DNA of 64,000 nucleotides. Origin: Bdellovibrionales bacterium (GTDB lineage: Bacteria > Pseudomonadota > Alphaproteobacteria > UBA9219). The stretch is taken from assembly GCA_041662785.1 (NCBI GenBank), contig JBAZRW010000003.1:142531-206530 (forward strand), written 5' to 3'. The position numbers and the translations under genes are program-made. Positions 5,950-64,000 of this stretch are shown in pieces; position 1 is the first letter of the stretch; each line of letters starts with the position of its first letter. Under the pieces are notes generated by a model, which made no database searches, was not told where the DNA came from, and was given only the letters and a program-made list of their open reading frames with translations.

Positions 5950-5970
5950 TTCTGTCTGCTGTTGCGCTCT

Positions 5971-6031
5971 ATTGTCCGCTACCACCCGTTAGGCGTTTCC
6001 ACCAGCCGCCTTTGGGCTGATCGCCACCGGA
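5971..6031. repeat. 61-bp direct repeat, copy 1 (duplicate of the rne 3' end)
   Basis: Identical to 6917-6977; it would encode the last ~20 residues of RNase E (NPSGGDQPKGGWWKRLTGGSGQ*). Confidence 0.9.
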
Positions 6032-6035
6032 GGGG

Positions 6036-6893: not shown

Positions 6894-6914
6894 GTCCCCT
6901 CCTGTTAAAGCATC

Positions 6915-9494
6915 TTATTGTCCGCTACCACCCGTTAGGCGTTTCCACCAGCCGCCTTTGGGCTGATCGCCACCGGATGGGTTAACAACTTCATAGGATG
7001 AAGAGCCTTGTCCGACGGGTCTTGGTGTTGTGTCAAGATCATGAATGCTGGTTGGAATGAACGGCTTTGGCGCAGCGGCGCGTTCATGAGAGGCGCGTGG
7101 AGGGCGGCCTCCGCCATTCCCATTCCCCGTTGCGGGTGCAGCAGCGGCTTCGCCTGCTTCACGAGGCTCCCCGCCATTGCGGCGGCGACCACCGCGACGA
7201 CCACGACGGCGACGGCTCTTGCCATCAGGATCAGTATCCTGCTCTTGCGCCGAGGGGCGAGGCGATGATTGCAAATCTTCGCCCAGATCAAGGGAGGACG
7301 TGTTCGCTTCAGGAGAAGCAAAAGGATCATCCGTGGATGCACGCGGCGTTTCACTGCCTCGCCCTCCACGACGGCTTGTGCTGGGGCGGCCCGCGCGATC
7401 ATGTTTGCGGAAACGGCTGCGGCCCCCGCGGCGGCCTGTTCCTTCGGTTGAGCCTTCCTCTTGCGAGGGTGAGGGCGAGGAGTCCCCCTCAGTCTCATCA
7501 CGGGACTCGTCATGCGAGAAGAGTGGCATATCGCGTTCGGTATCAGCAATGACCTGATCCGCGTTCACAGCCGGTTCGGCGCGGCGAGACGTGGGGCGAC
7601 CCTTGGCGCGTTCCAACTTATAACCCGGAGGCGGGATCGCGTCGTCGTTTTGAATGACGATGGTCAGACCGTAGCGCGATTCTAAGGAGCCAACTGCGTC
7701 GCGCTTGTGGTTAAGGATATAGACGGCGACGTTGGTCGGAATTTGAACCGTGATCTCATTCGTGCGTTGCTTGATGGCTTCTTCTTCAATAGCGCGAAGA
7801 ATGGATAGCGCCGCCGAGTCAGGCGAGCGAATATAGCCAGAGCCGGAGCAATGCGGGCATTTCTCAAAGTTGATTTCAATCAGGCTGGGGCGCAGACGTT
7901 GGCGCGACAGTTCCAGCAAACCGAAGGGTGAGATGCGGCCAATTTGCAAACGCGCACGGTCATTCTTCATCGATTCTTTGATGCGGCGTTCGACGGCGGC
8001 GTTATTGCGGCCATCTTCCATATCGATGAAATCGATAACGACTAGACCTGCCAGATCGCGAAGGCGCAGTTGGCGTGCGATTTCTTCGGCGGCCTCAAGA
8101 TTGGTTTTAACCGCCGTTTCCTCAATATGGCGTTCACGCGTGGCGCGGCCAGAGTTCACGTCGATGGACACCAGCGCTTCGGTCGGGTTGATGACCAAAT
8201 AGCCGCCAGAGCGTAGCTGCACAATCGGGCTGTTGAGCGTATCAATTTGGTTTTCCACTTGGAAGCGGATAAACAGCGGCGTCGGATCGTTATAGAGCTT
8301 AACCTTGTCGGCCTGATCGGGCATGACGGCGCGTATAAACTCGTGCGCTTTTTCAAAGCCCTCTTGGCCTGCAATCAAAATCTCGGCGATGTCTTGCGTG
8401 TACAAATCACGCACCGAGCGCTTGATTAGGTTCGCTTCCTCATAAATCAGCGTCGGTGCGCTGGAGGCCAGCGTTTGTTCGCGGATGCTGTCCCACATGG
8501 ACAAAAGATATTCCAAATCGCGCTGAATGTCGGGCGGATCCTGTTCCATGCCCGCCGTGCGCAAGATGACGGCCATGCCTTCGGGGATTTCCAGTTGATC
8601 CAGAATCTCCTTCATACGGCGACGGTCTTGGTGATTGGTAATTTTGCGTGAGACGCCGCCACCGTGATCTGTGTTGGGCATCAAAACACAATAGCGTCCG
8701 GCAAGTGACAGGAAGCTGGTCAAGGCTGCGCCTTTATTCCCGCGCTCTTCCTTCACAACCTGAATGAGCATGACTTGGCCGCGCTTTAGGACTTCTTGAA
8801 TCTTATAGCGGGGGCGATGCTGGCGCACGATGCGCTCGGTCACTTCGCCGCCAACGCTTTCGGGCGGCGCTTCGGGCATTGCGACCTCGGTCAGCGACCC
8901 CCCCCCGATAGCGGCGTTGCCAAAATCTGTGATCAGGCCGACGCTTGTGTCCTCATCGCCAAACGCATGAGCCAAGCTGCTAATAGGGGCAGACGACGGC
9001 TGGGCGGTTGGGGCTGCGGAAGACTCCTCCGCCAAAAGAGCTTCCTCAACGGGAGCTTCATCCTCGGTTGGAGACGTTGTGGCCTTATCTTGCGTGTAGT
9101 CTTTGTCGTCGTCATCGGCCTCATCAGGAGCGGAATCGTTCCCGTTAAGCTCAGAGTCGATATCCGTATCCTCTTGGTCTTCTTCGTCCATAGAGTCGTC
9201 GTCCGACTCTTCCTCATCATGGGGGCGATCCGCCATGGGGATGCGGAAGTAATCGGGATGGATTTCGCTGAAGGGCAAGAAGCCGTGGCGGTTGCCGCCG
9301 TACTCGACAAAAGCGGCCTGCAAGGACGGCTCAATGCGCATGACCTTGGCCAGATAGATATTGCCCCGCAAGATAGGCTTGCTGGCCAAACTAAAGTCAA
9401 GATCTTCTAATCTATTGTTATCTCTATAGCTTTCGACAATTGCTATACGAGTCTCTTCGGGATGCATGGCATCCACCAACATTCTTTTCGTCAT
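6915..9494 (-). CDS. rne: ribonuclease E
   Basis: 859 aa. N-terminal S1 domain interrupted by a long acidic insertion (DEEESDDDSMDEEDQED...), as in alphaproteobacterial RNase E. Catalytic core present (DFIDMED..., CPHCSGSGYIRS zinc-link). Arg-rich C-terminal scaffold. Confidence 0.9.
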   Translation of the reverse strand: MTKRMLVDAMHPEETRIAIVESYRDNNRLEDLDFSLASKPILRGNIYLAKVMRIEPSLQAAFVEYGGNRHGFLPFSEIHPDYFRIPMADRPHDEEESDDDSMDEEDQEDTDIDSELNGNDSAPDEADDDDKDYTQDKATTSPTEDEAPVEEALLAEESSAAPTAQPSSAPISSLAHAFGDEDTSVGLITDFGNAAIGGGSLTEVAMPEAPPESVGGEVTERIVRQHRPRYKIQEVLKRGQVMLIQVVKEERGNKGAALTSFLSLAGRYCVLMPNTDHGGGVSRKITNHQDRRRMKEILDQLEIPEGMAVILRTAGMEQDPPDIQRDLEYLLSMWDSIREQTLASSAPTLIYEEANLIKRSVRDLYTQDIAEILIAGQEGFEKAHEFIRAVMPDQADKVKLYNDPTPLFIRFQVENQIDTLNSPIVQLRSGGYLVINPTEALVSIDVNSGRATRERHIEETAVKTNLEAAEEIARQLRLRDLAGLVVIDFIDMEDGRNNAAVERRIKESMKNDRARLQIGRISPFGLLELSRQRLRPSLIEINFEKCPHCSGSGYIRSPDSAALSILRAIEEEAIKQRTNEITVQIPTNVAVYILNHKRDAVGSLESRYGLTIVIQNDDAIPPPGYKLERAKGRPTSRRAEPAVNADQVIADTERDMPLFSHDESRDETEGDSSPSPSQEEGSTEGTGRRGGRSRFRKHDRAGRPSTSRRGGRGSETPRASTDDPFASPEANTSSLDLGEDLQSSPRPSAQEQDTDPDGKSRRRRGRRGGRRRNGGEPREAGEAAAAPATGNGNGGGRPPRASHERAAAPKPFIPTSIHDLDTTPRPVGQGSSSYEVVNPSGGDQPKGGWWKRLTGGSGQ
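6917..6977. repeat. 61-bp direct repeat, copy 2 (native rne 3' end)
   Basis: Perfect match to 5971-6031. Confidence 0.9.
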
Positions 9495-10124: not shown

Positions 10125-13100
10125 ATGGCGCAGAGCAATCCTGTCGTTTCCGCAAAAACCACCAGCGGCGGCATTAGAATTCGCAAAAGCTTCGGTCGCA
10201 TTCCCGAAGTGGCTGAGATGCCCAACCTTATTGAGGTTCAGCGCCGCTCTTATGAGTATTTCTTGCAGATGGATGTTCCTCCTGCAAAACGCGACCGCGT
10301 TGGTTTGCAAGAAGTCTTGCGTTCGGCTTTCCCGATCCGCGACTTTGCAGAACGCGCCGTTCTGGACTTTGTCTCCTATGAACTGGAGCAGCCCAAATAT
10401 GACGTTGAGGAATGCCAACAACGTGGCATGACTTTCGCCGCCCCCTTAAAGGTGACTTTGCGCCTGACGGTTTTTGATGTTGATGAGACTACGGGCGTCA
10501 AGTCCATCCGCGACATTAAAGAACAAGATGTTTACATGGGCGATATGCCTTTGATGACCGCCAACGGCACGTTCGTCGTGAACGGCACTGAGCGCGTGAT
10601 CGTCAGCCAAATGCATCGCAGTCCGGGCGTGTTCTTTGACCATGATAAGGGCAAGACGCATGCTTCCGGCAAGTATCTGTTCGCCGCCCGCGTCATTCCT
10701 TATCGCGGTTCGTGGCTGGATTTTGAGTTCGACGCCAAGGATATGGTCTATGTCCGTATCGATCGCCGTCGCAAGCTGCCCGTCACCACGCTTCTCTATG
10801 CTTTGTATGGCGACGAGACGGAAAAGCTGCGCGTTAAGCGCGAGAAGGCTGGCAAGCCTTTAGAGCTTCATGAGATTCAAGGTATGGGCAAGGAAGAGAT
10901 TTTAAGCTCTTTCTATGATCTCGTTCCTTATAAGAAGGTCAAGAATGGCTGGACGACTGCCTTTAATGCCGAGCGCGTCAAGGGTCAGAAGTTGGCCTCC
11001 AAGATTGTCGATGCCAAGAATGGCAAGACGGTTGCGGAAGAGGGGACTAAGATGACCCCGCGCCTAATCACCAAGCTGGTTGATGCGGGCCTGAAGGAAG
11101 TTTTGGTGCAGGCCGAGAACCTGATTGGTTCTTACCTTGCTACCGATATGATCGACGAGAAGACGGGCGTTGTCTTGTTTGAAGCGGGCAATGAGCTGAC
11201 CGCCGAGATCCTTGAGCAGATCGAAGCGACGGGCGTGAAGGAAATCCAGTTGCTGGGTATCGATCACGTCAATGTTGGCCCCTATATTCGCAACACGATG
11301 GCAGCGGATAAGAATGTCTCACGCGAAGACGCGTTGATCGACATTTACCGCGTTATGCGTCCGGGCGAGCCCCCCACCGTTGAATCGGCAGAGGCTTTGT
11401 TCCAAGGCTTGTTCTTTAACCTAGAGCGTTACGATCTGTCGCCTGTGGGCCGCGTGAAGATGAACTCGCGCCTTGGTTTCAAGACCGACGATCAGGTTCG
11501 CGTTTTGCGCAAGGAAGACATCCTCAAGATCGTCAAGATCATGTGCGAGCTGAAAGATGGTCGCGGCGAGATTGACGACATCGATCACCTTGGCAACCGC
11601 CGCGTTCGCTCAGTCGGCGAATTGATGGAAAACCAATATCGTCTTGGTCTGCTCCGTATGGAACGCGCGATCCGCGAGCGTATGAGCAGCATCGAGATTG
11701 ACACGGTCATGCCTCATGACTTGATCAACGCGAAGCCTGCCGCTGCCGCTGTGCGTGAGTTTTTTGGCTCCTCGCAGCTCTCGCAGTTTATGGATCAAAC
11801 GAACCCGCTGTCTGAAATCACGCATAAGCGTCGCGTTTCGGCCCTGGGGCCTGGTGGTTTGACGCGTGAACGTGCGGGCTTTGAAGTCCGCGACGTGCAT
11901 CCCACGCATTATGGCCGTATCTGCCCGATTGAAACACCGGAAGGTCCGAATATCGGTCTGATCAACTCGCTGGCCACCTATGCCCGTGTGAACCAATATG
12001 GCTTTATCGAAAGCCCCTATCGCCGCGTGAAGAGCGCCAAGGTCACGAACGACGTGGTCTATCTCTCCGCGATGGAAGAAGGCCAATATACGATTGCTCA
12101 GGCGAACTCAGAGCTTGATAAGAACGGCAAGTTTGTTTTGGAAATGATTGTTTGCCGTAAGAACGGCGAAGTCATTGTCGCCGCCGCCGAGGAAATCGAT
12201 TTCATCGACGTCTCGCCCAAGCAAATCGTGTCCGTCGCCGCCGCGCTCATCCCGTTCCTTGAGAACGATGACGCGAACCGCGCTCTTATGGGCTCGAACA
12301 TGCAACGTCAAGCCGTTCCCTTGTTGCGCAACGATGCGCCGCTGGTGGGTACGGGTATGGAAGGCGTTGTGGCACGCGATTCCGGCGTGGCCGTTGTGGC
12401 TCGCCGTTCGGGCATCGTGGATCAGGTTGACGCGACGCGCGTTGTTGTGCGTGCGACAGAAAATCCCGATCCAACCGCGCCGACGGTTGATATTTACAAC
12501 ATGTTGAAGTTCCAACGCTCGAACCAAAGCACCTGCATCACGCAGCGCCCGATTATCAAGGTCGGCGATCAGGTTCAGGCGGGGCAGATCATTGCCGATG
12601 GTCCTTCCACGCAGTATGGTGAGTTGGCCTTGGGCCGTAACGTGCTGGTCGCGTTTATGCCTTGGAACGGCTACAACTTCGAAGATTCGATCTTGATTTC
12701 CGAACGTATCGTCAGCGAAGACGTGTTCACCTCTATTCACATCGAAGAGTTCGAAGTGATGGCGCGTGACACCAAGCTGGGTCAGGAAGAAATCACACGC
12801 GACATTCCGAACGTCGGCGAAGAAGCCCTGAAGGCTCTTGACGAAGCGGGCATCGTGTATGTCGGCGCGGAAGTCAATCCGGGGGATATTCTGGTCGGTA
12901 AAGTGACGCCCAAGGGCGAAAGTCCCATGACGCCGGAAGAAAAACTCCTTCGCGCCATCTTTGGTGAAAAGGCTGCTGACGTGCGCGACACGTCGCTTCG
13001 TCTTCCGCCGGGTGTGACGGGAACCATCGTCGAAGTGCGCGTGTTCTCGCGTCGCGGCGTCGAGAAAGATCAACGTGCCATTGCGATTGAACGGAGCGAA

Positions 13101-19665: not shown

Positions 19666-19794
19666 GCCGTTTGGTATTACTCACAAGCCTTAACGCTTGA
19701 AAGTAATAAAATTATGCCTCAAAAAGTCAGAAACAAGCTACAATGATTGAGCAATATGAGTGTTCAAACGATTTTGAAAGAGAGGAATTTTATC

Positions 19795-20409
19795 ATGAAC
19801 ATCATTCAAGAAGATAAGGCGCCAACCGCTTTTCAAAAAGCTGCCAACGCGGTCACCCGTGTGGTGGAAGTTATTGGTTGGGATTTTACAACTATTGCTG
19901 CCGCGACAGGAGCAACTGCTGCTCTGACGGGAAGCGCTGCTGCTTCATGCGTTGCTATGTGTGTCGCCTCATTTTTTACTGATACTGGGCCTTATAATGA
20001 TAGCTTTAGTCGGTATCTGATTAAAGCGAGTCTTTGTATTGGCGGTTTCATTTTTGCTGTGGGGGGAACACTCTTTAGTTCTTCCGCTGAAATGACTCGA
20101 AAAGCTGGAGAGGCGGCGCTTAATCAGGTTATTGAAACGGGCGCACCAAGCGTTTCTGTCCCCCTATCAACAAGAGATTTCATGACAGGCTTTGGTAAGA
20201 AGATTTCTGTGACGGGGACGGCTGAAACATTACGTCAAAATGACTCAGCGACATTTCTTCTGGCATCAGTCAACGGCAAACCGCACTATTATTTTATTCA
20301 CAGAAATGCTGATGGCTCTTTAGTAAGAGATTTCTCCGGCCGTCCCAAAAGAGAAGAAATCCCCTTGCGTGCGCACGATTACAAGTATTCGACCCACGAT
20401 CCAAGATAG
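19795..20409 (+). CDS. hypothetical membrane-associated protein (low GC, MITE-flanked)
   Basis: ORF 19747-20409 trimmed to the ATG with GAGAGGA RBS. Two hydrophobic segments; no recognisable domain. Confidence 0.45.
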   Translation: MNIIQEDKAPTAFQKAANAVTRVVEVIGWDFTTIAAATGATAALTGSAAASCVAMCVASFFTDTGPYNDSFSRYLIKASLCIGGFIFAVGGTLFSSSAEMTRKAGEAALNQVIETGAPSVSVPLSTRDFMTGFGKKISVTGTAETLRQNDSATFLLASVNGKPHYYFIHRNADGSLVRDFSGRPKREEIPLRAHDYKYSTHDPR

Positions 20410-24391: not shown

Positions 24392-25252
24392 GTGAAAACT
24401 GTTGGTCTGTTCGTTGCCGCCATTCTAATCGCGTTATCGTCCGTTTGGCTTCACGATAAAAATGTGCACACTGTCAATGCAACGCAAGAGACAGCCTATG
24501 ATCGCGTGTTGCACACCAAGACTTTGCGGTGTGGATACGCTGATTGGCCTCCTCATGGACTTGTAAAAGATCCGAATACGGGAAAAATTTCCGGCGTCAT
24601 GTACGATATCCTTGAAGAGATTGGACGTCGTTTGAGTCTTAAGATTGACTGGAGCGAGAATACGGGGTGGAGCAATATTGTAAGCAGTCTTCAATCAAAG
24701 CGCATTGACGTTTTCTGCGCTGGTTTGTGGGTGAATGCCGAGCGTGGTCGTTCCTTGACATATTCTATGCCACTTTTTTTCAACGCATCGTTCCCCTTTG
24801 TCAGAATCGATGATCATCGGTTTGATAAGGACATCAAACGTGCCGATTCATCGGACATTCGTTTTTCTTCCATAGAGGGTGAGTTATCGGATGCCACAGC
24901 ACGCCTTCATTTCCCGAAAGCGCAGAAAATACCGGTGAGCCAGATGTTGCAGGCTTCCGAAGCCCTGAACAACATTGCAGTTAACAAAGCGGATATTATT
25001 ATTCTGGATTACAGCATGGGGAAAGGGTTCATAGATTCTAACCCTTCTACCTTGCGTAAATTAGGGGACAAACCTTTTCAGGTTTTCCAGAACTCCCTTG
25101 GCTTTGATATTCATGAAAACACGCTGCGCGATATGATTAACAATGCCCTTAATGAGATGCACAATCAGGGGGTTATTGCCAATATTGTTGCGAAACACAG
25201 TAACGATCCCAGTGAGTTTATTCCAGTCGCTCCGTCTTATTTGCAGCCGTAG
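24392..25252 (+). CDS. solute-binding protein family 3, orphan paralogue inserted between nusG and rplK
   Basis: 286 aa, GTG start with AAGGAG RBS, signal peptide. About 40% identical to the 6036-6893 product (shared CGY...DPNTGK.SG..YDI.E.IG......I.W.E..G......L.....DVFC.GLW). Confidence 0.7.
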   Translation: MKTVGLFVAAILIALSSVWLHDKNVHTVNATQETAYDRVLHTKTLRCGYADWPPHGLVKDPNTGKISGVMYDILEEIGRRLSLKIDWSENTGWSNIVSSLQSKRIDVFCAGLWVNAERGRSLTYSMPLFFNASFPFVRIDDHRFDKDIKRADSSDIRFSSIEGELSDATARLHFPKAQKIPVSQMLQASEALNNIAVNKADIIILDYSMGKGFIDSNPSTLRKLGDKPFQVFQNSLGFDIHENTLRDMINNALNEMHNQGVIANIVAKHSNDPSEFIPVAPSYLQP

Positions 25253-41826: not shown

Positions 41827-41934
41827 TGTGAATCACCTGATTGACCATTGGCGCGAATACATATAAATCTAAAAAGAGCAAATGCCTATCAAAATGCCCG
41901 ATTCTGGGACTTCCGCGATAACTGGAGAGAAAAC

Positions 41935-42684
41935 ATGAACAAGACTCGTACCTTTGCCTTCTTGTCTTCACTGCTTCTTGGTTTTTCACTTTCATTTTCG
42001 GCTCTTGCAGCGACGCCACCCGCCAAGCCGGAAAACGTCATGAAGATTCTGAAAGAGAATAAAGACCTTAGCAAATTTGCCGATCTTGTGGAAAAAGCGG
42101 GCCTTGAAAGCGAACTCACCAGCAAAGATGCGCGGCTTACCATTTTCGCGCCTAATAACGCTGCGATGGATAAGCTTTCGTCTGATGTTCTGGATCGTGC
42201 CAAAGAAACCAAGGACGGTCTTAAAAACCTTGTTCATTATCATATGATCAACGGCAGCGTCGTGTTTGCTACGAATATCAAGGGCCGCCGCGCTTCGCCT
42301 AGCTCGGCCAGCGGCGAGATGATTGGTTTTGACGGCATGGGCAAAACACTCAAGGTTGGCGAGGCGACCATTACGACTGAAGATTTAGGTTCTAATAATG
42401 GCGTTGTTCAGGTTATCAGCGCTGTGCTTGTTCCTGACTCGCTCAAAGATCCCAAGATTAAAGAAGCTCAAAAGGAAAAAGAAGAAGCTGCGATGAAGAA
42501 AGAGATGGAGGAACGCGAAAAGGAGACCGCCAAGAAAATGGAAAGTTCGGCTCCCGCTGCCGTTGCTCCTGTGAAAGGGGAAACGCCAGCTACTGCCCCT
42601 AGCGTTGCTGGATCCGCGCCCGTGGCCGCTCCTGCCCCCAAAGAGGAAAAGAAAAGTTTCCTGAAGGGCTTGTTCGGACGTTAA
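41935..42684 (+). CDS. secreted fasciclin (FAS1) domain protein with Lys/Glu-rich and Pro/Ala-rich C-terminus
   Basis: Signal peptide then a FAS1 core (TIFAPNNAAM...NGVVQVISAVLVP). Start trimmed to the ATG after GGAGAG. Confidence 0.7.
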   Translation: MNKTRTFAFLSSLLLGFSLSFSALAATPPAKPENVMKILKENKDLSKFADLVEKAGLESELTSKDARLTIFAPNNAAMDKLSSDVLDRAKETKDGLKNLVHYHMINGSVVFATNIKGRRASPSSASGEMIGFDGMGKTLKVGEATITTEDLGSNNGVVQVISAVLVPDSLKDPKIKEAQKEKEEAAMKKEMEEREKETAKKMESSAPAAVAPVKGETPATAPSVAGSAPVAAPAPKEEKKSFLKGLFGR

Positions 42685-43067: not shown

Positions 43068-44117
43068 GTGCAACGGTTCTTAAGCTCTATCGCGCCCGTA
43101 AAGCAAGAGCGCATGAAACCATTAACTATAATGATATGTTTCCTTATTCCTATGGTGTTGTTAAAAGCAGTCAAAGATCAACACGAGGAGCATATTCATA
43201 TGGGTAAAAACAAGAAAGTCAGCCCGAAAGCGATTGCCAAGCTTAAAGAGCAAGGAGAAATTTTAGGCGCATTTGTCGACAACGCCCATGCTCTTTTAAG
43301 TAAAGTGGCGAAGACGAAGGATTTTGCCGCGCTTAAAAAAATTATCCCCATCCTAAGCCAAGCCATTAGGGCAAGCGGTCAAATGGGCGCGTTTAAAGAG
43401 CTCCCTTCTGCCCTAAACCAAAGGGGCTTCATCCATGAATCATTGGCTTTAGATAATGCGTACATCAGCACGCTCCCGCGTGACAGCGCCCTTTGGAGTG
43501 GGATTGTTTTGCGCTACGCGACGGGCGCTGTAAATCTACTGCCAAAGGGTGAAAGCCCTCTTCCTTATCTTTTTAGCATAGCCCCTTATCTTAGACGAAG
43601 TGCGTTGTTATCTCAAACAAAACCTCTCGTGGCTCAATGCTTTTTGCAGGCGGCGCGTCAGGCGACAGAAAATGGTCGCGTTTGTATGGAAGAAGTCGCG
43701 CATAGGTTATATAGGGGGGACACGAAGAGACAGAACAGAATGGCAAGAAGGTTGGCGTGCGACACGATCAAATTTGCCGCTGATAATTCTGTTGCCTATA
43801 AGGCTTATCATGTGTCCTTATCGTCTGTTGTGAACGAAAGAAAAAAACTACGTGATGCCATGAAAACAAAGGAGCAATTGGGCCTTGTTTGTTCTGGTCG
43901 CGAAAAACGCCGAGAGAATCTCTTGCTGGATATTCAGAAAAAAGCGGGCGAAGATTTGATGAGGCGCATGGCCAAGGATCCCGCCGTCCACACGGAACAT
44001 CACTCTGTCCTTATCGCTGATGATGTCTCACGCGACATTCCCATCTTGCGGAAACGATTCAATCAGATGATGAATAAAATACAGCAATATGATGTCCAAG
44101 ACTTAGACTGGGGTTAA
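43068..44117 (+). CDS. hypothetical protein (349 aa), lower-GC, next to the tRNA-Pro repeat
   Basis: Long ORF with a hydrophobic N-terminal segment and no recognisable domain. Start uncertain (alternative ATGs at 43113, 43200). Confidence 0.4.
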   Translation: MQRFLSSIAPVKQERMKPLTIMICFLIPMVLLKAVKDQHEEHIHMGKNKKVSPKAIAKLKEQGEILGAFVDNAHALLSKVAKTKDFAALKKIIPILSQAIRASGQMGAFKELPSALNQRGFIHESLALDNAYISTLPRDSALWSGIVLRYATGAVNLLPKGESPLPYLFSIAPYLRRSALLSQTKPLVAQCFLQAARQATENGRVCMEEVAHRLYRGDTKRQNRMARRLACDTIKFAADNSVAYKAYHVSLSSVVNERKKLRDAMKTKEQLGLVCSGREKRRENLLLDIQKKAGEDLMRRMAKDPAVHTEHHSVLIADDVSRDIPILRKRFNQMMNKIQQYDVQDLDWG

Positions 44118-46248: not shown

Positions 46249-46318
46249 TTTAACGCTCTAGCCCGTGTATAAGCTCGTTGTACGTCGTTCTGGTTACCAA
46301 TATAGGATCTTACTCTCT

Positions 46319-47863
46319 ATGGACAAAATTCTTATTCTCGATTTCGGATCGCAAGTCACGCAGCTGATTGCGCGGCGCGTGCGCGAAGCGGGGGCGTACT
46401 GCGAGATTCACCCCTTTAACCGGACGGATGAGCAGATCAAGGCCTTTGCGCCCAAGGGGATTATCCTCTCCGGCTCGCCCGCCTCGACCACGGAAGACGG
46501 CAGCCCGCGCGCGCCTCAAGCCGTGTGGGATTTGGGCGTTCCCGTTCTGGCCATCTGCTATGGCCAGCAAACGCTTTGCATGCAGCTGGGCGGCCTTGTG
46601 GAAAGCGGCCATACCCGCGAGTTTGGCAAAGCGGAATTGCAAATCACCGAAAGCTGCGCGTTGTTTGAGGGGCTGTGGCCCACCGGCTCAACGCAGCAAG
46701 TCTGGATGAGCCACGGCGACCGCGTGACCAAGATCCCCGAAGGCTTCAAGGTTGTGGCAACCAGCACAGGCGCACCGTTCGCCTTCATTGCGAATGACGA
46801 GCGCAAGATTTACGCAACGCAATTCCATCCTGAAGTCGTTCATACGCTGGACGGTGCGAAGCTTTTGGGCACCTTTGTGCATAAAATATGTGGAATCGGT
46901 GCGGATTGGAGCATGAAGGCCTTTCGCGAGACGGAAATCGCCAAAATCCGCGCTCAAGTCGGCACTGGCAAGGTTATTTGCGGTCTTTCGGGCGGCGTGG
47001 ACAGCTCCGTCGCGGCGGTGTTGATTCACGAGGCGATTGGTGAGCAGCTGACCTGCATCTTTGTCGATACGGGCCTGATGCGCGAAGGCGAGGGCGAGGA
47101 AGTCGTCACGCTGTTCCGGAAACATTACAACATCCCGCTTGTCCATGTACAGGCACAGGATATGTTTTTAAAGGCTTTGGCGGGCGTCAGCGATCCGGAG
47201 ACCAAGCGCAAGACCATCGGCAAATTATTTATCGATGTGTTCGAGGCCGAGGCGCGCAAGATCGGCGGCGCAGGTTTCCTAGCACAGGGGACTTTGTATC
47301 CCGATGTGATCGAAAGCGTGTCCTTTACGGGCGGGCCGAGCGTCACGATCAAGTCGCATCACAATGTCGGCGGCCTGCCAGAGCGCATGAACATGAAGCT
47401 GGTTGAACCTTTGCGCGAACTCTTCAAGGATGAGGTGAGGAAACTTGGCAAAGAGCTTGGTTTACCTGAAACTTTTGTCTCTCGGCATCCTTTTCCGGGG
47501 CCGGGTCTCGCAATTCGTGTCTTAAGCGATATAACCGAGGAAAAACTGGCTATTTTGCGCAAAGCAGACGTGGTTTACCTCGATGAGATCCGAAAAGCGG
47601 GTCTTTATGACGAAATTTGGCAGGCTTTTGCCGTTTTGTTGCCCGTTCGCACCGTGGGCGTCATGGGTGATGGCCGTTCGTACGATTATGTGCTAGGTTT
47701 ACGCGCTGTCACGTCCGTTGACGGGATGACGGCAGAGTCCTACGCTTTCGATCATGCGTTTCTGGCCAAGGTGGCGACTCGTATCATCAATGAGGTGCGC
47801 GGCGTCAATCGCGTCGTCTATGACGTGACCAGCAAACCGCCCGGCACAATTGAATGGGAATAA
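46319..47863 (+). CDS. guaA: GMP synthase (glutamine-hydrolysing)
   Basis: Class-I GATase N-terminal domain ([20 protein letters not shown]) and ATP-PPase motif SGGVDSSV. Start trimmed to MDKIL. Confidence 0.95.
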
Positions 47864-47864
47864 G

Positions 47865-48470
47865 ATGAAGCATTCAGGATTCAGGATTCGGCATTCAGGG
47901 AAAATCCTGCTTGTCCTGATAGCGTGTTTTCTTCCCCAAGCCGCTGCTCATGCCGCGAACCACTGCTATGCGCCGGAAGAGTTAAAGGCGGAGCAGCTCT
48001 TGCGCCTGCATTCCGAGCTTATGGTCATCACGGTAACGTGCAAACAGGGATCAACAGGCCGTGATTTGGTTCGACCTTATGTAGGTTTCACAAAACGTCA
48101 CACCAAGGCTATCCAAGAGGCGGAAGCGACCCTTATCAACTATTATGCGAAAGCCTTTGGGGGCGATGGAATCCCTAAGCTGGATAAGCTTCGCACCAAG
48201 CTGGCCAATGAGTTTGGGCAAACAATCGCTGACGAATCAGCTCCTGCCTTTTGCGCCCGCGCCCGCGACAAGGTGTTGAAAATGTATGACGACCTCTCGC
48301 CAACGATTCTTGAGGACAACATACGATTATATCGTAGCTCTTTGAGCTATGTGCCTCAGTGCGCCCATAATGAGATTCAGACCGCCTCTGCGGATACTGA
48401 AATCGGAGACGAATCCCCCAGAAAGAAAGAGAAACGGGCCGAAAAGGCCACGAACAAAGAAAACCGTTAA
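47865..48470 (+). CDS. hypothetical secreted protein with Lys-rich C-terminus
   Basis: Start 1 nt after the guaA stop. Signal peptide (ILLVLIACFLPQAAAHA), four Cys; no recognisable domain. Confidence 0.4.
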   Translation: MKHSGFRIRHSGKILLVLIACFLPQAAAHAANHCYAPEELKAEQLLRLHSELMVITVTCKQGSTGRDLVRPYVGFTKRHTKAIQEAEATLINYYAKAFGGDGIPKLDKLRTKLANEFGQTIADESAPAFCARARDKVLKMYDDLSPTILEDNIRLYRSSLSYVPQCAHNEIQTASADTEIGDESPRKKEKRAEKATNKENR

Positions 48471-48540
48471 TTCTTCTTGACCGATGGCTCGTAATCGGCC
48501 AAAAACCACACCAAATCATGTCGCATGAAGTGTGTAGGTT

Positions 48541-49425
48541 ATGCCCAGTTTAAAAGACCTCAAAAACCGTATCGCCAGCGTGAAGTCCACGCGCAAAATC
48601 ACGTCCGCTATGAAGATGGTGGCGGCCAGCAAGCTGCGCCGTGCTCAGGACCAAGCGGAATCGTCGCGGCCTTACGCCAAGTTTATTTTGCGCATGACGC
48701 AGGACTTGGCGCGGACGATTGAAATCAGCCCCGAATCGTCCCCTCTTTTGGTTGGACGTGAAAAACAACAAACCGTGTTGCTTGTCGTTCTCACTTCGGA
48801 TCGCGGCTTGTGCGGCGCTTTTAACGGCTCCATCATTCGCGAGGCGCGCCGCCGCATTGTGGCGCTAGAGAAAGAGGGCAAAACCGTTCGTTTGATTTGC
48901 GTCGGGCGTAGGGCTTACAACCTTTTGCACCGTGAGCATGAGGCCAAGATTTTGCACAAAGTCGAAAGCGCCGCGAAGAAGCAGATTGATCTTGCGGATG
49001 CCCAAGAATTAAGTGATCGCCTGATCGCGTTGTTTGAAGAGGGCGCGTTTGATGTCGCCCACATCATTTTCAACCGCTTTAAATCTGCTATCTCACAAAT
49101 TGTGTCGGTAGAACAGCTGATCCCGTTCGGCGTACCTGAGGCCAATGACAACGATGCCGAGGGTCGTTTAGCCTGCGAGATTTTTGAGCCAGAGCAGAAT
49201 ACCTTGATGGCCGCGCTCTTGCGCCGCAATCTGACCGCGCAGCTCTTCGCCGATTTGATGGAAAGCTCGGCGGGCGAGCAGGGCGCACGTATGACAGCCA
49301 TGGATAACGCGACCCGCAACGCGGGCGATATGATCGACCGCTTGACTCTCAACTATAACCGCTCACGCCAAGCCTATATCACCAAGGAGCTGATCGAAAT
49401 CATCTCTGGCGCGGAGGCTGTGTAA
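48541..49425 (+). CDS. atpG: F0F1 ATP synthase subunit gamma
   Basis: MPSLKDLKNRIASVKSTRKITSAMKMVAASKLRRAQ N-terminus; conserved C-terminal helix. Confidence 0.9.
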   Translation: MPSLKDLKNRIASVKSTRKITSAMKMVAASKLRRAQDQAESSRPYAKFILRMTQDLARTIEISPESSPLLVGREKQQTVLLVVLTSDRGLCGAFNGSIIREARRRIVALEKEGKTVRLICVGRRAYNLLHREHEAKILHKVESAAKKQIDLADAQELSDRLIALFEEGAFDVAHIIFNRFKSAISQIVSVEQLIPFGVPEANDNDAEGRLACEIFEPEQNTLMAALLRRNLTAQLFADLMESSAGEQGARMTAMDNATRNAGDMIDRLTLNYNRSRQAYITKELIEIISGAEAV

Positions 49426-49427
49426 GA

Positions 49428-49931
49428 ATGTTTACGTCAGCAAAACTGTCCCGTGACGAATTGATCGGTATGTATGAAATTGCCGAAGGTACTATTTGTG
49501 TTCATCTACAGGAGTTGGAACGGGCAGAAAAACAAGGTCTGATGTCTTTCCCAACAAACGCTGTCACGATTGATCAGACAGATTGTGACAAGGTGTTTGA
49601 GGCTGAATGCAGAGTGCAACGTGTCCTTACGCAGCATGCTACGGTTCTTGGAAGCTCATGTTTTGTCTTTAAAGACTTGCTGCTTGATGGAGGGAAACCA
49701 AGAGAACAACAGGATTTTCCGTTTAATGCTTATCAAAACACAGAGTGGTTGGGCGACTTGTTGTCCATAACACCGAAGGTAGAAGATTTGGCGGTTAGAT
49801 GGGGATTCCATAAAGAGTTGGCCGCCATCAAAGGGGCGCGGATAGGACTGGAAGAAATGTTGGATGCCTGCCGACCTTTGCAAGTTGAGGAGCGGGGTAT
49901 CCCAAAACTAGAAACGCTTAGAGCCGCTTAA
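49428..49931 (+). CDS. hypothetical protein (167 aa) inserted between atpG and atpD
   Basis: ATG 2 nt after the atpG stop; ends 41 nt before atpD; lower GC than flanks; no recognisable domain. Confidence 0.5.
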   Translation: MFTSAKLSRDELIGMYEIAEGTICVHLQELERAEKQGLMSFPTNAVTIDQTDCDKVFEAECRVQRVLTQHATVLGSSCFVFKDLLLDGGKPREQQDFPFNAYQNTEWLGDLLSITPKVEDLAVRWGFHKELAAIKGARIGLEEMLDACRPLQVEERGIPKLETLRAA

Positions 49932-49951
49932 TTTTTTTGAGAACACACTGA

Positions 49952-51406
<1,455 letters not shown>

Positions 51407-51420
51407 AGGCGGGTATCATC

Positions 51421-51810
51421 ATGGCTAACCAACTGCAATTCGAATTGGCCTCACCGCAAAAGCTGGCGTGCAGCAAGCCTGTCGTGATGGTGACGGTTCC
51501 GGGCGGCGAGGGCGACTTTGGCGTCATGCTTGGACATGCGCCTATGGCCACGACTGTGGCGATGGGCGTTGTTGAAGCCTATGAGCATGACCAAACGACT
51601 GTGACAGAGCGCTGGTTCGTTGCAGGCGGCTTTTGTGAGGTTGTGGGCGACCGCTGCACCGTGATGGCCGATCAAGTCATCGCGATAAAAGATTTGAAGA
51701 AAGATATTCTTGAAGAGGAAATCGCCAGCTTAGCCAAAGAAGCCGCCAACGATTCTGACGCGGCACAGAAAATGGCCATCGCTCAAGCGAAGTTGCAGGT
51801 GATTGGCTAG
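51421..51810 (+). CDS. atpC: F0F1 ATP synthase subunit epsilon
   Basis: 129 aa directly after atpD; beta-sandwich N-terminus and helical C-terminus typical of AtpC. Confidence 0.85.
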   Translation: MANQLQFELASPQKLACSKPVVMVTVPGGEGDFGVMLGHAPMATTVAMGVVEAYEHDQTTVTERWFVAGGFCEVVGDRCTVMADQVIAIKDLKKDILEEEIASLAKEAANDSDAAQKMAIAQAKLQVIG

Positions 51811-52132
51811 AGCCGAACCGTTTAGTTTCCTCATTTCCCCCACCGTCATCGCGAGGGGGCGTCTTGTCCGGCGTAGCTGCGAAGCAGCGAAGACGGAAGC
51901 CCCCGTGGCGATCCATCTCCTGAATTTAGCGAAGAGCAATTCTAGTGGAAGGTTGAGGAGATGGATTGCCGCGCTCCCGTTGGTCGCTCGCAATGACGTG
52001 GGATATCATGAGAACCATCCAGAATAGCTATAGTCCTTTTTTCTGGTCAATTAGCTCTGTTTTTTGCCCCCGAAAAGTCGGCCATCGACATGCTTTGTTA
52101 TCAAATACTTAGCGCAAAAACATTCGCCACGG

Positions 52133-52440
52133 TCGAGCAGAGCGTGGAATAGTGCCACTCAGTATCCTTCCGCTCAAAGTTAACGTCGTAAGTCTTTGAT
52201 ATACAACGAAACTGACTCGAATTTGGGTCTATGCTAACCAATTGATTCTAAAGGGCTTTGTCAACTTCGCCCGATTTTGGATTGCCAAAAGCAAAAAATC
52301 AGGAGTCAGGGGGTGAGGTTCAGAGTTGGTCTCTCCTCTTTCGTCATCCCCGACCCCTCTGCGCCCTTCGGGCTTCGCGGGGCAGGCAAAGCGACGCAGC
52401 AGCGGAGCGGAGATACAGGATACATCTTCTGAAATGACCA
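52133..52440. repeat. ~300-bp repeat, family C copy 2
   Basis: Matches 27236-27530 in several blocks; ends in a CGTCATCCC...GCAGGCAAAGC hairpin module. Confidence 0.7.
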
Positions 52441-52763
52441 AGAGCGACTCAGGTAGAAATTTCAGGTGATGGATCCCGCCTTCCGGCGGGATGACGGGAG
52501 GGGGGCTGGCATCCCTTTTTTTTGAATCATTTTATCTGACGTAGGTTATAATGGGTTACGCAAGAGGTCTATTTCACAAGATCGCTAATCTCTCTAAAAT
52601 TTTCAATTTTCAAATTGACTTCCATTTTCATTCATTCTATGCCACGGCAGCGTTGCACACCGCGTTCAAGGTGGGCCTCGTCGTGAATCCTTCTTAACGT
52701 ATGCAATGAAGGTATTCGCTTCGCAAAACCAACTTGCTCGTCTACATAACGATGGATCCTTTC

Positions 52764-54773
52764 ATGTCTTTGACAATGGCTCAGCTGGCGGTACTTTTAA
52801 CCCTCATGTCTTCGGTTGCGGCGCTCGTTTTCGCGAGACAGCCCCGTTTTATGATCAGCTTGTCGTTCTTCTTGCTTGGCCTATCCGGCCTTGTAGCCGT
52901 TGCAGCGGGCGGCATGGCCTTGCTAGGCAATCAGGTTGAGCAAACCATTCTCCCCATCGGCCTTCCTTGGCTGCATGTTTGCCTTCATATCGATGCTCTT
53001 GCGGCTTTCTTTCTCTTCATTGTCGGGTTCGTCACTTTCGTCGCATCCTGCTATGGACCATCCTATATAAGTCGTCACGCCGATGATGGCGTGCATGCTG
53101 TTGGCACGCTAACCTTTTTCACGGGTCTTTTTGTCGGCGGTATGTACCTTGTGCTTTTGGCGGCGGACGCTTTTTCCTTTATGATTGCTTGGGAATTGAT
53201 GTCGGTCGCAAGCTATTTTCTTGTGGCCTATCAGCATGACAGAGCGGAAAATCGCAGCGCCGCCTTTATCTATCTTCTTATGGCCGTTGTTGGTGGGGCG
53301 TTTATCCTTCTTTCCTATGGCGTCCTAGCTGGCTTTAGCGATGGGTTTAGCTTTGCTTCTATGGCAAAAGCGAACCTTACCCCCGCATGGGCCACCATCG
53401 CCTTTTCGCTCGCCTTTGTCGGGTTTGGGCTTAAAGCCGGTATCGTTCCGTTGCATGTTTGGTTGCCTCAGGCGCATCCTGTCGCACCTTCCCACATCTC
53501 AGCCTTGATGTCTGGCGTCATGCTTAAAGTCGCCGTCTATGGTTTTATCCGTTTTGTCTTTGACCTATTAGGGGGCATCCACTGGCAGTGGGGTGTTCTG
53601 GTTCTTCTGGTCGGCGCGATTTCGGCTCTTATGGGCGTTTTGTATGCCCTTATGCAGCACGATCTTAAACGCCTTCTCGCCTACCACAGCGTCGAAAACA
53701 TCGGGATCATCTATATCGGCCTTGGCCTCTCCATGATTTTCACGGCAACCAACCATAAGGAAGTTGCCGCTATTGCCTTGGTCGCCGCTCTTTATCACTG
53801 TCTCAATCACGCCTTGTTCAAGAGCTTGCTCTTTTTGGGGGCGGGCGCGGTTTTAGAACAAAGCGGCCAACACAATATGGAGCATATGGGCGGTCTCATC
53901 AAAAAGATGCCCGTCACAGCGGCTTGCTTTTTGGTCGGATGCGTCAGTATTTGCGCCCTTCCTCCCTTTAACGGCTTTGTCTCAGAATGGCTGATTTACC
54001 AAGCCGCTTTGCAAGGCACGGTTTTAAAGAGTGGCATTTTGGGAACGGCTCTTCCCATCACGTCCGCCATGCTGGCGTTGACAGGGGCTTTGGCTATTGC
54101 CTGCTTTGTCAAGGTCTACGGGGTCGTTTTCTTAGGGCTTCCCCGCACCGAGAAAATCCATGAAGCGCATGAAGTTCCTCGCGGCATGCAATTTTCCCAA
54201 ATCATCCTGTCCATCAGCTGCTTGGTTTTTGGTATCTTCCCAACATGGACAGCAAACGTCCTTAACGTCATCCCGCAAAAACTTCTGGGCACAGGGTTTG
54301 CGGGAGCCAATGGCGACAGCTGGTTGTGGTTGACCCCCATCAGCAAAGAGACAGCCTCGTATGGTGCGCTTCCTGTCCTGATCGGTCTTTTGATCAGCTG
54401 GGTCGTCGTTTACTTCTTCCTTCACCCGCCCACACGCGACAACAGCATCCGTATTGCTCCGGCATGGGATTGCGGGTTTGGGCCTTTGAACGCACGCATG
54501 CAATACACAGCCACGTCCTTTGCCATGCCCATTCGTCGGATTTTCTCCTTCGCTTGGCATGTTTCGGAGAAAGTCGAGCCCGCGCATATGGGCAAGGGGC
54601 CTCACTATTTCCTTCATGTTAGTGACTGGGTTTGGATGTACGCGTATGCGCCTATTGGCAAAATTATCCATAAGGTTGCCGAAAGAACGGCGCGCATTCA
54701 AGGGGGCGATCTTCGTATTTACCTCTGCTATTCCTTCTTTACCTTACTCTTTTTGCTCTGGGTGATCGTATGA
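52764..54773 (+). CDS. hyfB: hydrogenase-4 component B-like membrane subunit (HyfB/HycC, NuoL-type antiporter-like)
   Basis: Aligns along its length with E. coli HyfB (LPQAHPVAPSHISALMSGVMLKVAVYG...). Start uncertain (TTG 52734, ATG 52752/52764/52776). Confidence 0.85.
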   Translation: MSLTMAQLAVLLTLMSSVAALVFARQPRFMISLSFFLLGLSGLVAVAAGGMALLGNQVEQTILPIGLPWLHVCLHIDALAAFFLFIVGFVTFVASCYGPSYISRHADDGVHAVGTLTFFTGLFVGGMYLVLLAADAFSFMIAWELMSVASYFLVAYQHDRAENRSAAFIYLLMAVVGGAFILLSYGVLAGFSDGFSFASMAKANLTPAWATIAFSLAFVGFGLKAGIVPLHVWLPQAHPVAPSHISALMSGVMLKVAVYGFIRFVFDLLGGIHWQWGVLVLLVGAISALMGVLYALMQHDLKRLLAYHSVENIGIIYIGLGLSMIFTATNHKEVAAIALVAALYHCLNHALFKSLLFLGAGAVLEQSGQHNMEHMGGLIKKMPVTAACFLVGCVSICALPPFNGFVSEWLIYQAALQGTVLKSGILGTALPITSAMLALTGALAIACFVKVYGVVFLGLPRTEKIHEAHEVPRGMQFSQIILSISCLVFGIFPTWTANVLNVIPQKLLGTGFAGANGDSWLWLTPISKETASYGALPVLIGLLISWVVVYFFLHPPTRDNSIRIAPAWDCGFGPLNARMQYTATSFAMPIRRIFSFAWHVSEKVEPAHMGKGPHYFLHVSDWVWMYAYAPIGKIIHKVAERTARIQGGDLRIYLCYSFFTLLFLLWVIV

Positions 54774-60025: not shown

Positions 60026-60297
60026 TAGCTTTTTGAGTCGGCTTTTCAGAATCCCACCCCGGTGGACACCTCTTGTTGCATAAAGGCAAAAAAAGGGGGG
60101 GGCAAAAAATTCGTTTACACTTATTTTACTTGTAATCGAATAAGGTTTGAATACTAATCATTAACCATGATTTCTTCCTCCGTTTTCGTCGTGGATGCCT
60201 GTAATCTTGTGGTTTTCCTGAATGAATCCAGCCCCCTTGATTCTGTTTAATGTGTCAAATCCTTGTCTCACTTCTTAAGCTTTTGCAGGAGTTCCCA

Positions 60298-60840
60298 ATG
60301 AAAAGAGTTTTCCTTACACGCGTTCTTGTTTGTGCTGGTTTCTTTGCCCTTGTTTGTGGCATGGCGGCTCCAGCACAAGCTGTTGATCAAGCGGATTTGA
60401 TGGTTGCGCTTAAAACCACACCGCTTCTAACGAATAAACTATCGGGCAGTGCCGTTATGGCGGTTGTGTTTGATCCCGCTGATGCAGCATCAAAAGCAGA
60501 GGCTGATTCGCTTAAAGCACTTCTCGATGCAGGGATCGACGCACCAGGTGGTGTTAAAATCACGGGGATGATGGTTCCTGTCGCCGAGGTTGGCAGTAAG
60601 CTTTCTTCCGCCAAGCTGGCCTTCATTACAAAGGGGGCTTGTACGGCTCCAGTGAGCACAGCGGCAAACGCGGCGGGTGTGTTGTCGATGTCAACCGATC
60701 TTGACTGCGTAAAAGGCAATAAGTGCATTCTAGGTATCGTCACGAAGCCAAGCGTTGAAATCTACTACAGCAAAACGGCAGCCGATGCAGCCAAAGTTGG
60801 CTTTGCGCAGGCGTTCACCATGCTCGTCAAACAAATCTAA
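60298..60840 (+). CDS. hypothetical periplasmic protein upstream of the TonB-dependent receptor gene
   Basis: Start trimmed to the ATG after AGGAG. Signal peptide (VLVCAGFFALVCGMAAPAQA); Ala-rich mature part with 3 Cys. Confidence 0.4.
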   Translation: MKRVFLTRVLVCAGFFALVCGMAAPAQAVDQADLMVALKTTPLLTNKLSGSAVMAVVFDPADAASKAEADSLKALLDAGIDAPGGVKITGMMVPVAEVGSKLSSAKLAFITKGACTAPVSTAANAAGVLSMSTDLDCVKGNKCILGIVTKPSVEIYYSKTAADAAKVGFAQAFTMLVKQI

Positions 60841-62948: not shown

Positions 62949-64000
62949 ATGGCATCGAACAGGTTCTCAACGGTCAATTGGCCTTTTGCGGTTAAGTTTG
63001 CCATCCCCGCTCTTCTTGTTTTTGCACTACTTATTTTTGTCGAGTTTCTTGGCCTTAACACCATTGGGCTCCTCAAAAATAGTATGGAAGACATTACGGA
63101 GCATAAATTTTCTTCAAATGTTCTTTTGTCGGATGTTGTTCAACAGTTCAGAGATGCCAATGGTCAGCTGCAGCAGATGCAACTGAACCAAGCCGCTGAA
63201 ATTAAGCAGGATGTTACAAAATCAGCAAAAGATATCGGTGATAAACTTGATGGCGTTGTCGCATCGCTTGAGCTTTACAAAAATCAGTATGCAGCCAAAG
63301 AAAATATCGCAAAAATAGATGACGCCATCGTCAACGTCAAAACGTACAAAGATGCCGTTGCTTTTGTCGCCAGCATGCTGGACGTTGATTTTAAAACGAC
63401 GGTCAATTTTCTCGTCCCTATCTCAAAAGCCTACAATAAAACGCTTGAGGACATTAACGTCATCGCCGCCACGTGCCTTAAAGATTCACAGGTTGTTTCT
63501 AAAGAGGCTATTCTGACCGTGTCAGAAGAAAAACAAACAATGTTTCTAACAAGCGTTATAGCTGTTATTTTTGTTCTCCTCGTTACATTATTGATTGTTC
63601 TTTCAACCGTTCGCTCAATTCAGCGTTTATCCAAGGCAACGCGACAGCTTGCTGATGGGGAAATGAACATTGATATTAATGGGCTTAAACGTAAGGACGA
63701 ACTTGGACAATTGGTCGATGCCTTATCCATATTCCGCGACAATATGGAGCGGGTTAATGCGCTGAAAGGCGAACAAGAACGCGCCGAAGAGAAAGCGCGC
63801 GAAGCTAAAAAACAAGCGCTCATGTCCTTGGCCCAAGATTTGGAACATGATGTAGGCGGCCTTGTTAGCGAAGTCGCCGCGACGACAAAGACGATGATGG
63901 ATGAAGCTATTTTGTTGGCCAAGTCAGCGGAGGCCATGTCTGCACAGGCCAATGAAGCATCCTTGATTTCAGGTCAAACCATGGAGGAGGCTCGTCACAC
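62949..64000 (+). CDS. methyl-accepting chemotaxis protein (3' end outside window)
   Basis: Open to the window edge; not in the ORF track. TM1 - periplasmic domain - TM2 - HAMP (LSKATRQLADGEMNID...LGQLVDALSIFRDNM) - start of MCP signalling domain. GGGGG RBS. Confidence 0.7.
   Translation, partial: MASNRFSTVNWPFAVKFAIPALLVFALLIFVEFLGLNTIGLLKNSMEDITEHKFSSNVLLSDVVQQFRDANGQLQQMQLNQAAEIKQDVTKSAKDIGDKLDGVVASLELYKNQYAAKENIAKIDDAIVNVKTYKDAVAFVASMLDVDFKTTVNFLVPISKAYNKTLEDINVIAATCLKDSQVVSKEAILTVSEEKQTMFLTSVIAVIFVLLVTLLIVLSTVRSIQRLSKATRQLADGEMNIDINGLKRKDELGQLVDALSIFRDNMERVNALKGEQERAEEKAREAKKQALMSLAQDLEHDVGGLVSEVAATTKTMMDEAILLAKSAEAMSAQANEASLISGQTMEEARH

Follow-up and report, generated by a model that had tools for sequence, protein, structure and literature searches.

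We describe an orphan gene, here named orfX, that sits between the F1 gamma and beta subunit genes (atpG and atpD) of an alphaproteobacterial ATP synthase operon. It is a 167-codon open reading frame (ORF) at positions 49428-49931 of a 64,000-nucleotide (nt) stretch of DNA, referred to as the window, which corresponds to positions 142,531-206,530 on the forward strand of contig JBAZRW010000003.1 (assembly GCA_041662785.1). On balance, we favor the reading that orfX is a real but dispensable, fast-evolving accessory passenger in the atpG-atpD slot and not a component of the ATP synthase. The closest relatives of the host carry the same operon without orfX, and the gene is therefore probably a passenger of recent acquisition and no new ATP synthase subunit. 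This is argued from the coding character of the frame and its single homolog, its scattered occurrence among related loci, the codons that end atpG in carriers and non-carriers, and the assortment of other genes found at the same junction in Alphaproteobacteria.

Results

Coding evidence and the orfX family

An earlier note on this DNA had reported an ORF that starts 2 nt past the atpG stop, is separated from atpD by 41 nt, has a lower GC content than the atp genes and contains no recognizable domain. The coordinates were confirmed, as were the other two observations. The GC content of orfX is 0.462, and its GC content at third codon positions (GC3) is 0.435, compared with 0.664 for atpG and 0.669 for atpD; this ranks second-lowest among 50 non-overlapping ORFs of the window (mean 0.603, standard deviation 0.079). 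Pfam and NCBIfam held no family matching orfX at E<=1.

Sequence searches, which in all stand for ~15 billion proteins, uncovered a single relative. A word-indexed search of 5.8 billion clusters matched orfX to itself only, whereas phmmer, run exhaustively on 1.84 billion cluster representatives, recovered one true homolog, P0003, a protein of 166 amino acids (aa). The two proteins are 31% identical over 148 residues (BLASTP E 2e-15), and P0003 is located at the same junction. P0003 is encoded on a JGI metagenomic contig (L081) in the order hyp206-atpG-P0003-atpD, where hyp206 is the gene that also precedes atpG in the window, and its start overlaps the atpG stop as ATGA. Between the window and L081, identity is 69% for atpG, 94% for atpD and 52% for hyp206. 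P0003 had no Pfam or NCBIfam family at E<=0.01. A profile built from both members did not find a third in the 5.8-billion-cluster database or in metagenome contigs, and tblastn of phage and plasmid collections detected no homolog of orfX. One further phmmer match, P0002 (7361 aa, E 6e-66), was rejected as an artefact: it is a repeat-rich, eukaryote-like protein, and its score is the sum of 43 weak matches that involve residues 12-50. orfX and P0003 share a length of ~166 aa, the core VL..H.T..GS.C ... EW.G.LL..TP...DLA and an atpG-coupled position between atpG and atpD; the definition of the family is provisional because it has only two members.

Several properties indicate that the frame is protein-coding. 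The nonsynonymous measure of divergence between orfX and P0003 (pN 0.48) is below the synonymous one (pS 0.73), with synonymous sites saturated, and codon periodicity is seen as GC1 > GC2. By our own arithmetic, the chance of an open frame of 167 codons at the composition of orfX is ~1e-4 per frame. Given the equal length of the two proteins, their significant alignment, the conserved coupled start and the codon periodicity, a non-coding or decayed frame is very unlikely, and by these sequence criteria orfX is a genuine protein-coding gene. The NCBI record lists its product as hypothetical protein WC612_04320, from a genome labelled 'Bdellovibrionales bacterium'. Positions 47350-50459 of the window are matched base for base by an independent Logan assembly of SRR18595301, and the junction is therefore no assembly artefact of the metagenome-assembled genome (MAG).

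Distribution of orfX in the clade

Loci of the clade were gathered in two ways, through the lineage-specific neighbor hyp206 and through the closest gamma proteins and their contigs; L082 and L083 proved to be the same sequence and were counted once. Members of the orfX family occur in 2 of 13 distinct clade loci, namely the window and L081. In all 11 others (L088, L089, L090, L091, L082/L083, L092, L093 and L094-L097), atpG runs straight to atpD across a gap of roughly 30-46 nt. Among these is the sister of the window, L088, whose atpG protein is 95% identical (100% bootstrap) and whose atpG-atpD gap is 41 nt. Alignments of L088 with the window by blastn end at window position 49425 and resume at 49954, with 528 nt replacing 22 nt. 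Identity to the atpG of the window is 83% in L089, 79% in L090, 75% in L091 and 73% in L082/L083. The nearest relatives of L081, L092 and L093, come from the same JGI sample and are likewise without orfX. The window and L081 fall at the tips of separate subclades in a tree of atpG.

The earlier note had set this comparison with the operons of relatives as its refutation test. The absence of orfX from L088 and from 10 further distinct loci with intact junctions speaks against a conserved role in the ATP synthase, and it bears out the statement that the operon carries an extra gene, which is an insertion relative to these relatives.

The operon was also said to be fragmented, with atpA and atpH missing upstream and with guaA and a secreted-type protein in their place, and this description was correct. 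Searches of the window by tblastn (one query each for atpA and atpH) matched nothing beyond atpD, to which the atpA query aligned weakly as a paralog, and neither gene is therefore in the window; guaA and a gene for a protein with a signal-peptide-like N-terminus (hyp206) stand upstream of atpG instead. All clade loci with sufficient upstream sequence share the order guaA-hyp-atpG-atpD-atpC, unlike other Alphaproteobacteria, in which atpA is upstream of atpG in 76 of 82 loci. The split of the operon is therefore old and lineage-wide. We considered whether orfX could be a divergent delta/OSCP subunit that replaces atpH and rejected this, as there is no OSCP match and relatives without orfX have the same split operon. 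One contig, L084, carries guaA and a hyp206 homolog (7001-7453) without atpG behind them within the available 7 kb; therefore, either the atpGDC cluster has been relocated once more or the genes are arranged differently in this locus. NCBI taxonomy places Micavibrio in Bdellovibrionales and all relatives of the atp genes are alphaproteobacterial, from which we infer that the host is a Micavibrio-like alphaproteobacterium.

The atpG tail and the probable gain of orfX

The last codons of atpG differ between loci with and without the gene. The atpG tail reads GCx GAA GCx GTx in ten of the orfX-less clade loci, L091 being the exception, and GCG GAG GC. in both carriers, where it contains the Shine-Dalgarno-like motif GGAGG. 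This motif is present in the atpG tail of all four loci with an atpG-coupled ORF (window, L081, L085 and L086). Of 12 clade or near-clade loci that lack such an ORF, one has the motif and 11 read GCx GAA or CAA (Fisher's exact p ~0.003 by our own arithmetic, for only three independent lineages). GGAGG may have been kept by selection as the ribosome-binding site of a passenger or may have arrived with the cassette, and either case would imply an ORF meant for translation. Over the last four atpG codons before the stop (49411-49422), the window differs from L088 at every third position, and a run of third-position differences over the last 4-5 codons occurs in both pairs of carrier and sister. 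The GC3 of the L081 homolog (0.545) is close to that of its flanks (0.557), compared with 0.435 for orfX and 0.66 for its flanks in the window.

Taken together, the GGAGG tails and the placement of the carriers at tips of different subclades point to a gene gained twice, each time with its ribosome-binding site already in place. We have moderate confidence only that both gains came about through recombination in the conserved flanks, as the sequences suggest.

No promoter-like or terminator-like site was seen between atpG and atpD. Folding of positions 49860-49990 gave z = -0.86, and the 3' end of orfX is thus not unusually structured. The 3' half of the atpD leader is conserved in relatives with or without orfX, as seen in alignments of the spacer.

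Other genes at the atpG-atpD junction

The gap between atpG and atpD has a median of 37 nt in 83 alphaproteobacterial loci and exceeds 250 nt in 10 of them. The contents of the enlarged junctions are listed with the features of the window in Table 1. Most junction ORFs begin 0-5 nt from the atpG stop. Some loci with such cargo have occupied atpA-atpG and atpD-atpC junctions as well, an example being L073 with two small ORFs between atpA and atpG. BLASTP, phmmer and hhalign detected no relation of orfX to any of the other junction ORFs, and the contents of the different enlarged junctions are likewise unrelated among themselves.

A second orphan family is found in a neighboring lineage, at the junction of the related loci L085 (9249-9986) and L086 (8475-8744), where a 77-aa ORF of L085 is 41% identical to the ORF of L086 (E 5e-16). 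In both loci the first junction ORF starts 1 nt after the atpG TAA, in the context GCG GAG GCT TTG TAA G ATG. L085 has two more small ORFs at this junction and, in its atpD-atpC gap (11582-12543), ORFs of 141 and 159 aa. Neither the junction ORFs of L085 and L086 nor the atpD-atpC ORFs of L085 had a Pfam match. With contents so heterogeneous, an expression slot open to passengers fits better than a site reserved for ATP synthase factors. A literature search returned nothing usable on insertions between atpG and atpD.

Two side observations were made on these operons. Conflict-type genes lie in the F1 operons of MAGs labelled 'Rickettsiales' or Alphaproteobacteria (L073, L062 and L068). In L010 (8347-8754) and L032 (8375-8812), from Dongiaceae/Rhodospirillaceae MAGs, a conserved ORF of ~135-145 aa that looks NUDIX-like by eye stands between atpD and atpC, with 68% identity between the two loci, as a further case of cargo within an F1 operon.

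The orfX protein

The product of orfX is acidic (pI 4.95), hydrophilic (GRAVY -0.21) and ~19 kDa in size, and reading of its sequence reveals neither a signal peptide nor a transmembrane segment. A single-sequence AlphaFold model was poor (pLDDT 48). From the alignment of the two family members, AlphaFold2 returned a four-helix bundle with helices at residues 9-35, 50-85, 106-125 and 128-153 (pLDDT 64, pTM 0.61); as modeled, the protein is predicted to be a soluble, cytoplasmic four-helix bundle. Positions conserved between orfX and P0003 concentrate in residues ~58-122, with H70, C24, C78, E106, W107 and D120 among the conserved positions, and the N-terminal ~10 residues differ.

Structural and family searches did not assign a function. 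Foldseek against PDB returned generic bundles alone, at E >= 0.25 (designed proteins, STAT coiled-coil domains and ferritins), and no function was drawn from them; a sequence profile search of PDB gave noise only (E ~0.8). There were no PADLOC matches at E<=1 and no PHROGs family, where the best match had an E of 0.064. Two specific identities were tried and rejected. A HEPN ribonuclease is suggested by R65-x4-H70 in orfX, but P0003 has no equivalent Arg and only H70 is invariant, with a Foldseek match to a HEPN toxin at E ~0.9. The motifs of a ferritin-like active site are absent or not conserved.

Other features of the window

The genes around orfX are given in Table 1. The true start of guaA is probably near 46319, and the annotated start of hyp206 overlaps the end of guaA by 14 nt. 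Homologs of hyp206 are 42-70% identical in L001, L081, L082, L085, L086, L088, L090 and L091, and hyp206 had no Pfam, NCBIfam or PADLOC match. Rfam and tRNA scans of positions 47000-53000 were empty.

Downstream of atpC, ~0.9 kb of the window (51811-52733) contains no ORF >=90 aa and no Rfam or tRNA match, and a terminator-like hairpin is found at 52495-52524. Many relatives (L090, L091, L092, L095 and L096) have a SnoaL/DUF4440 gene directly 3' of atpC, of which tblastn found no remnant in the window. Further ORFs with low GC3 (0.39-0.50, mean of the window 0.60) are located at 6036-6893, 19747-20409, 24392-25252, 41848-42684, 43068-44117, 60250-60840 and 62949-64000, and these may be additional lineage-specific or recently acquired genes.

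Table 1 Coordinates of features around orfX in the window and of genes at the atpG-atpD junction in other alphaproteobacterial loci
Locus	Feature	Coordinates	Strand	Description
Window	guaA (GMP synthase)	46265..47863	+	ORF; 83-87% identical to guaA of clade loci bearing Pfam GATase/GMP_synt_C
Window	hyp206 (206-aa protein, signal-peptide-like N-terminus)	47850..48470	+	Between guaA and atpG clade-wide
Window	atpG (F1 gamma subunit)	48541..49425	+	Pfam ATP-synt PF00231, E 6e-95; TAA 49423-49425
Window	GGAGG Shine-Dalgarno-like motif	49413..49417	+	From atpG codons GCG GAG GCT; 10 nt upstream of orfX ATG
Window	Inserted block, 528 nt	49426..49953	+	orfX and first ~22 nt of spacer; L088 has 22 nt instead (blastn breakpoints)
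Window	orfX (167-aa orphan)	49428..49931	+	ATG 2 nt past atpG stop
Window	atpD leader/spacer, 41 nt	49932..49972	+	Own Shine-Dalgarno AGGGGA at 49959-49964
Window	atpD (F1 beta subunit)	49973..51406	+	Pfam ATP-synt_ab, ATP-synt_ab_N, ATP-synt_VA_C
Window	atpC (F1 epsilon subunit)	51421..51810	+	Pfam ATP-synt_DE_N
L073	F1 operon cargo	5494-7922		Two small ORFs between atpA and atpG; Rap1a immunity protein, then NTP_transf_2/HepT (MNT/HepT) toxin-antitoxin pair between atpG and atpD
L062, L068	F1 operon cargo	5354-7307		Retropepsin-like aspartyl protease after atpG; 80-aa and 156-aa pair between atpA and atpG
L049	atpG-atpD cargo			PAP2 protein
L027	atpG-atpD cargo			Rieske/VanA_C oxygenase
L038, L057, L085, L086	atpG-atpD cargo			Orphan ORFs

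Discussion

It is hypothesized that the lineage of the window probably gained orfX after its split from the sister lineage L088. The likely route would be homologous recombination through the conserved 3' end of atpG and the atpD leader, and the donor may have been an unsampled related lineage that carries orfX at the same junction. Having no promoter or terminator of its own, orfX would most likely be transcribed together with atpGDC. Its translation would be coupled to that of atpG, as suggested by the ATG 2 nt past the stop and by GGAGG inside the final atpG codons.

Other occupants of the slot comprise immunity proteins, toxin-antitoxin pairs and assorted enzymes, and by analogy with them we think that a strain-specific role of orfX outside ATP synthesis is likelier than a role in it. 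As a guess from the same analogy, orfX could be a binding or immunity-type protein.

Several points weigh against this reading of orfX as a passenger. Both family members are found at the identical junction, coupled to the gamma gene, and the placement of orfX outside ATP synthesis draws on analogy with other cargo and on no property of orfX. Regarding its acquisition, atpG contains seven runs of >=4 third-position differences, and the cluster at its tail is therefore not unique; when the window and L088 were compared by sliding nucleotide identity, no stretch of the flanks stood out clearly as foreign; and no donor lineage is among those sampled. The expression of orfX is deduced from sequence signals alone, and its structural model, built on two sequences, is of modest confidence (pLDDT 64).

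Unlikely, though the first of the alternatives to be weighed, is that orfX is ancestral in the clade, was inherited vertically and is now a decaying accessory gene lost independently in most lineages. Such a history would explain why the family is known from this clade and site only, with no known donor outside the clade, and it suits both the flank-like composition of the L081 copy and the 31% identity of the two proteins, which fits a gene that has evolved fast since the subclades split (hyp206 is 52% identical in the same comparison). However, at least seven clean losses would be needed on the atpG tree. As tails read GCx GAA where the gene is absent and GCG GAG where it is present, an ancestral orfX would also oblige every lineage that lost it to have returned its atpG tail to GCx GAA independently and through identical synonymous changes. 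The copy in the window is moreover compositionally foreign (GC3 0.435 against 0.66), and the indel has clean edges, with the conserved atpD leader preserved.

It is a little less probable again that orfX serves F1 as a lineage-specific accessory factor, which would act on gamma or beta by binding as an inhibitor, regulator or assembly helper and would be produced ~1:1 with gamma through translational coupling. The shared position of both members between atpG and atpD, their coupling to atpG and the Shine-Dalgarno sequence embedded in the atpG tail are what such a factor would show, and the predicted protein is small and helical like known supernumerary inhibitors. The zeta subunit, in addition, demonstrates that supernumerary, fast-diverging regulators exist in Alphaproteobacteria, although the gene for zeta lies outside the atp operons (PMC9317440). 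The suggestion of the earlier note that orfX is a regulatory or inhibitor-like subunit was nevertheless not upheld. orfX is missing from the 11 other distinct loci of the clade, both sister lineages among them, and their operons are intact; Pfam yields no similarity to any ATP synthase family at E<=1; and clearly unrelated genes occupy the slot elsewhere. Covariation with gamma is also absent, as no gamma residue is exclusive to carriers and the two conservative columns that came closest (A/T and I/V) are polymorphic among non-carriers. A bolder form of the idea, to which we give slightly less credence still, is that orfX and perhaps other atpG-coupled small ORFs are F1 regulators, stoichiometric with gamma, that would bind the central stalk or the C-terminal region of beta and tune ATP hydrolysis in Micavibrio-like, probably predatory bacteria, as independent analogs of zeta, IF1 or AtpTheta. 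If orfX did act on F1, it would add a new regulator, evolved independently, to a machine that has been studied in great depth.

We find it quite improbable that orfX is a selfish element or part of one, such as a solitary toxin, antitoxin or immunity gene, a homing-endonuclease-like gene or a mobile-element cassette. The earlier note had raised a selfish insertion, of which the insertion stands and the selfish nature does not. A scattered distribution restricted to tips, at one and the same site between two strongly conserved genes, the atypical composition and the toxin-antitoxin or immunity genes at the same junction in L073, L062 and L068 would all agree with such an element. On the other hand, the inserted block holds orfX alone, with no partner gene or toxin-antitoxin companion. 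Pfam and NCBIfam give no nuclease, transposase or integrase domain, PADLOC and PHROGs give no family, and phage and plasmid collections give no homolog. Flanking direct or inverted repeats do not go beyond a chance-level 9-15 nt, the fold of the 3' end shows no attC-like structure, and the R-x4-H motif (R65..H70) is not conserved in P0003.

A non-functional open frame, whether intergenic filler or a dying pseudogene still open, is highly improbable despite the orphan status, the low GC3 and the absence from close relatives, as the 31%-identical homolog keeps length (166 and 167 aa) and position in a significant alignment, pN is below pS, GC1 exceeds GC2 and both carriers conserve the coupled start codon and Shine-Dalgarno sequence; neutral junk is likewise disfavored, as the homolog keeps length and position.

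For annotation, orfX should not be read as a new ATP synthase subunit, as the closest relatives of the host run the operon without it. The split F1 operon of Micavibrio-like bacteria tolerates foreign genes at its intercistronic junctions, apparently repeatedly. Newcomers attach at the upstream stop codon, and in this clade the ribosome-binding site is written into the last atpG codons. The junction offers a compact case of orphan genes that obtain free, strong and constitutive expression, and orfX represents a family with two known members among ~15 billion sequences, both in one slot.

Comparison with known systems

Supernumerary F1 inhibitors (zeta/DUF1476, mitochondrial IF1 and the C-terminal helices of epsilon) resemble orfX in being small, soluble, largely helical and fast-diverging, but orfX matches none of them by sequence (Pfam, no matches at E<=1). 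Zeta is restricted to Alphaproteobacteria, is widely conserved there and is encoded outside both atp operons (PMC9317440), whereas orfX is inside the operon and in 2 of 13 distinct clade loci. Zeta has a conserved inhibitory N-terminus; orfX has no conserved inhibitory segment at its N-terminus and a conserved core at ~58-122. The known F1Fo subunits (alpha, beta, gamma, delta/OSCP, epsilon, a, b and c) and the chaperones AtpI, Atp11 and Atp12 were rejected as identities for orfX, which has no profile match to them and is absent from 11 intact loci.

A 'gene X' between the gamma and beta genes was reportedly described by Tybulewicz, Falk and Walker in 1984 in the atp operon of Rhodopseudomonas (Rhodobacter) blastica, and is said to be a frame of unknown function that is absent from related species. 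orfX and gene X are probably unrelated because the exhaustive protein search found no homolog of orfX outside the clade of the window.

Bacterial genome islets consist of strain-variable genes that are swapped between core genes by homologous recombination in the flanks. They share with orfX a clean indel between conserved genes, a tip-only distribution and an atypical composition. orfX differs in that its slot lies inside an essential, tightly packed operon, its ribosome-binding site comes from the tail of the upstream gene and the sliding identity comparison found no recombination tract in its flanks.

The cargo at other alphaproteobacterial F1 junctions (L073, L062/L068, L049, L027, L085/L086, L038 and L057) occupies the same slot as orfX, usually starts 0-5 nt past the atpG stop, often has a lower GC content than its locus and is absent from tree neighbors, and its protein families are different from that of orfX. 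The kind of gene is thus already known, namely an accessory ORFan inserted in a conserved operon, and the orfX family itself is new.

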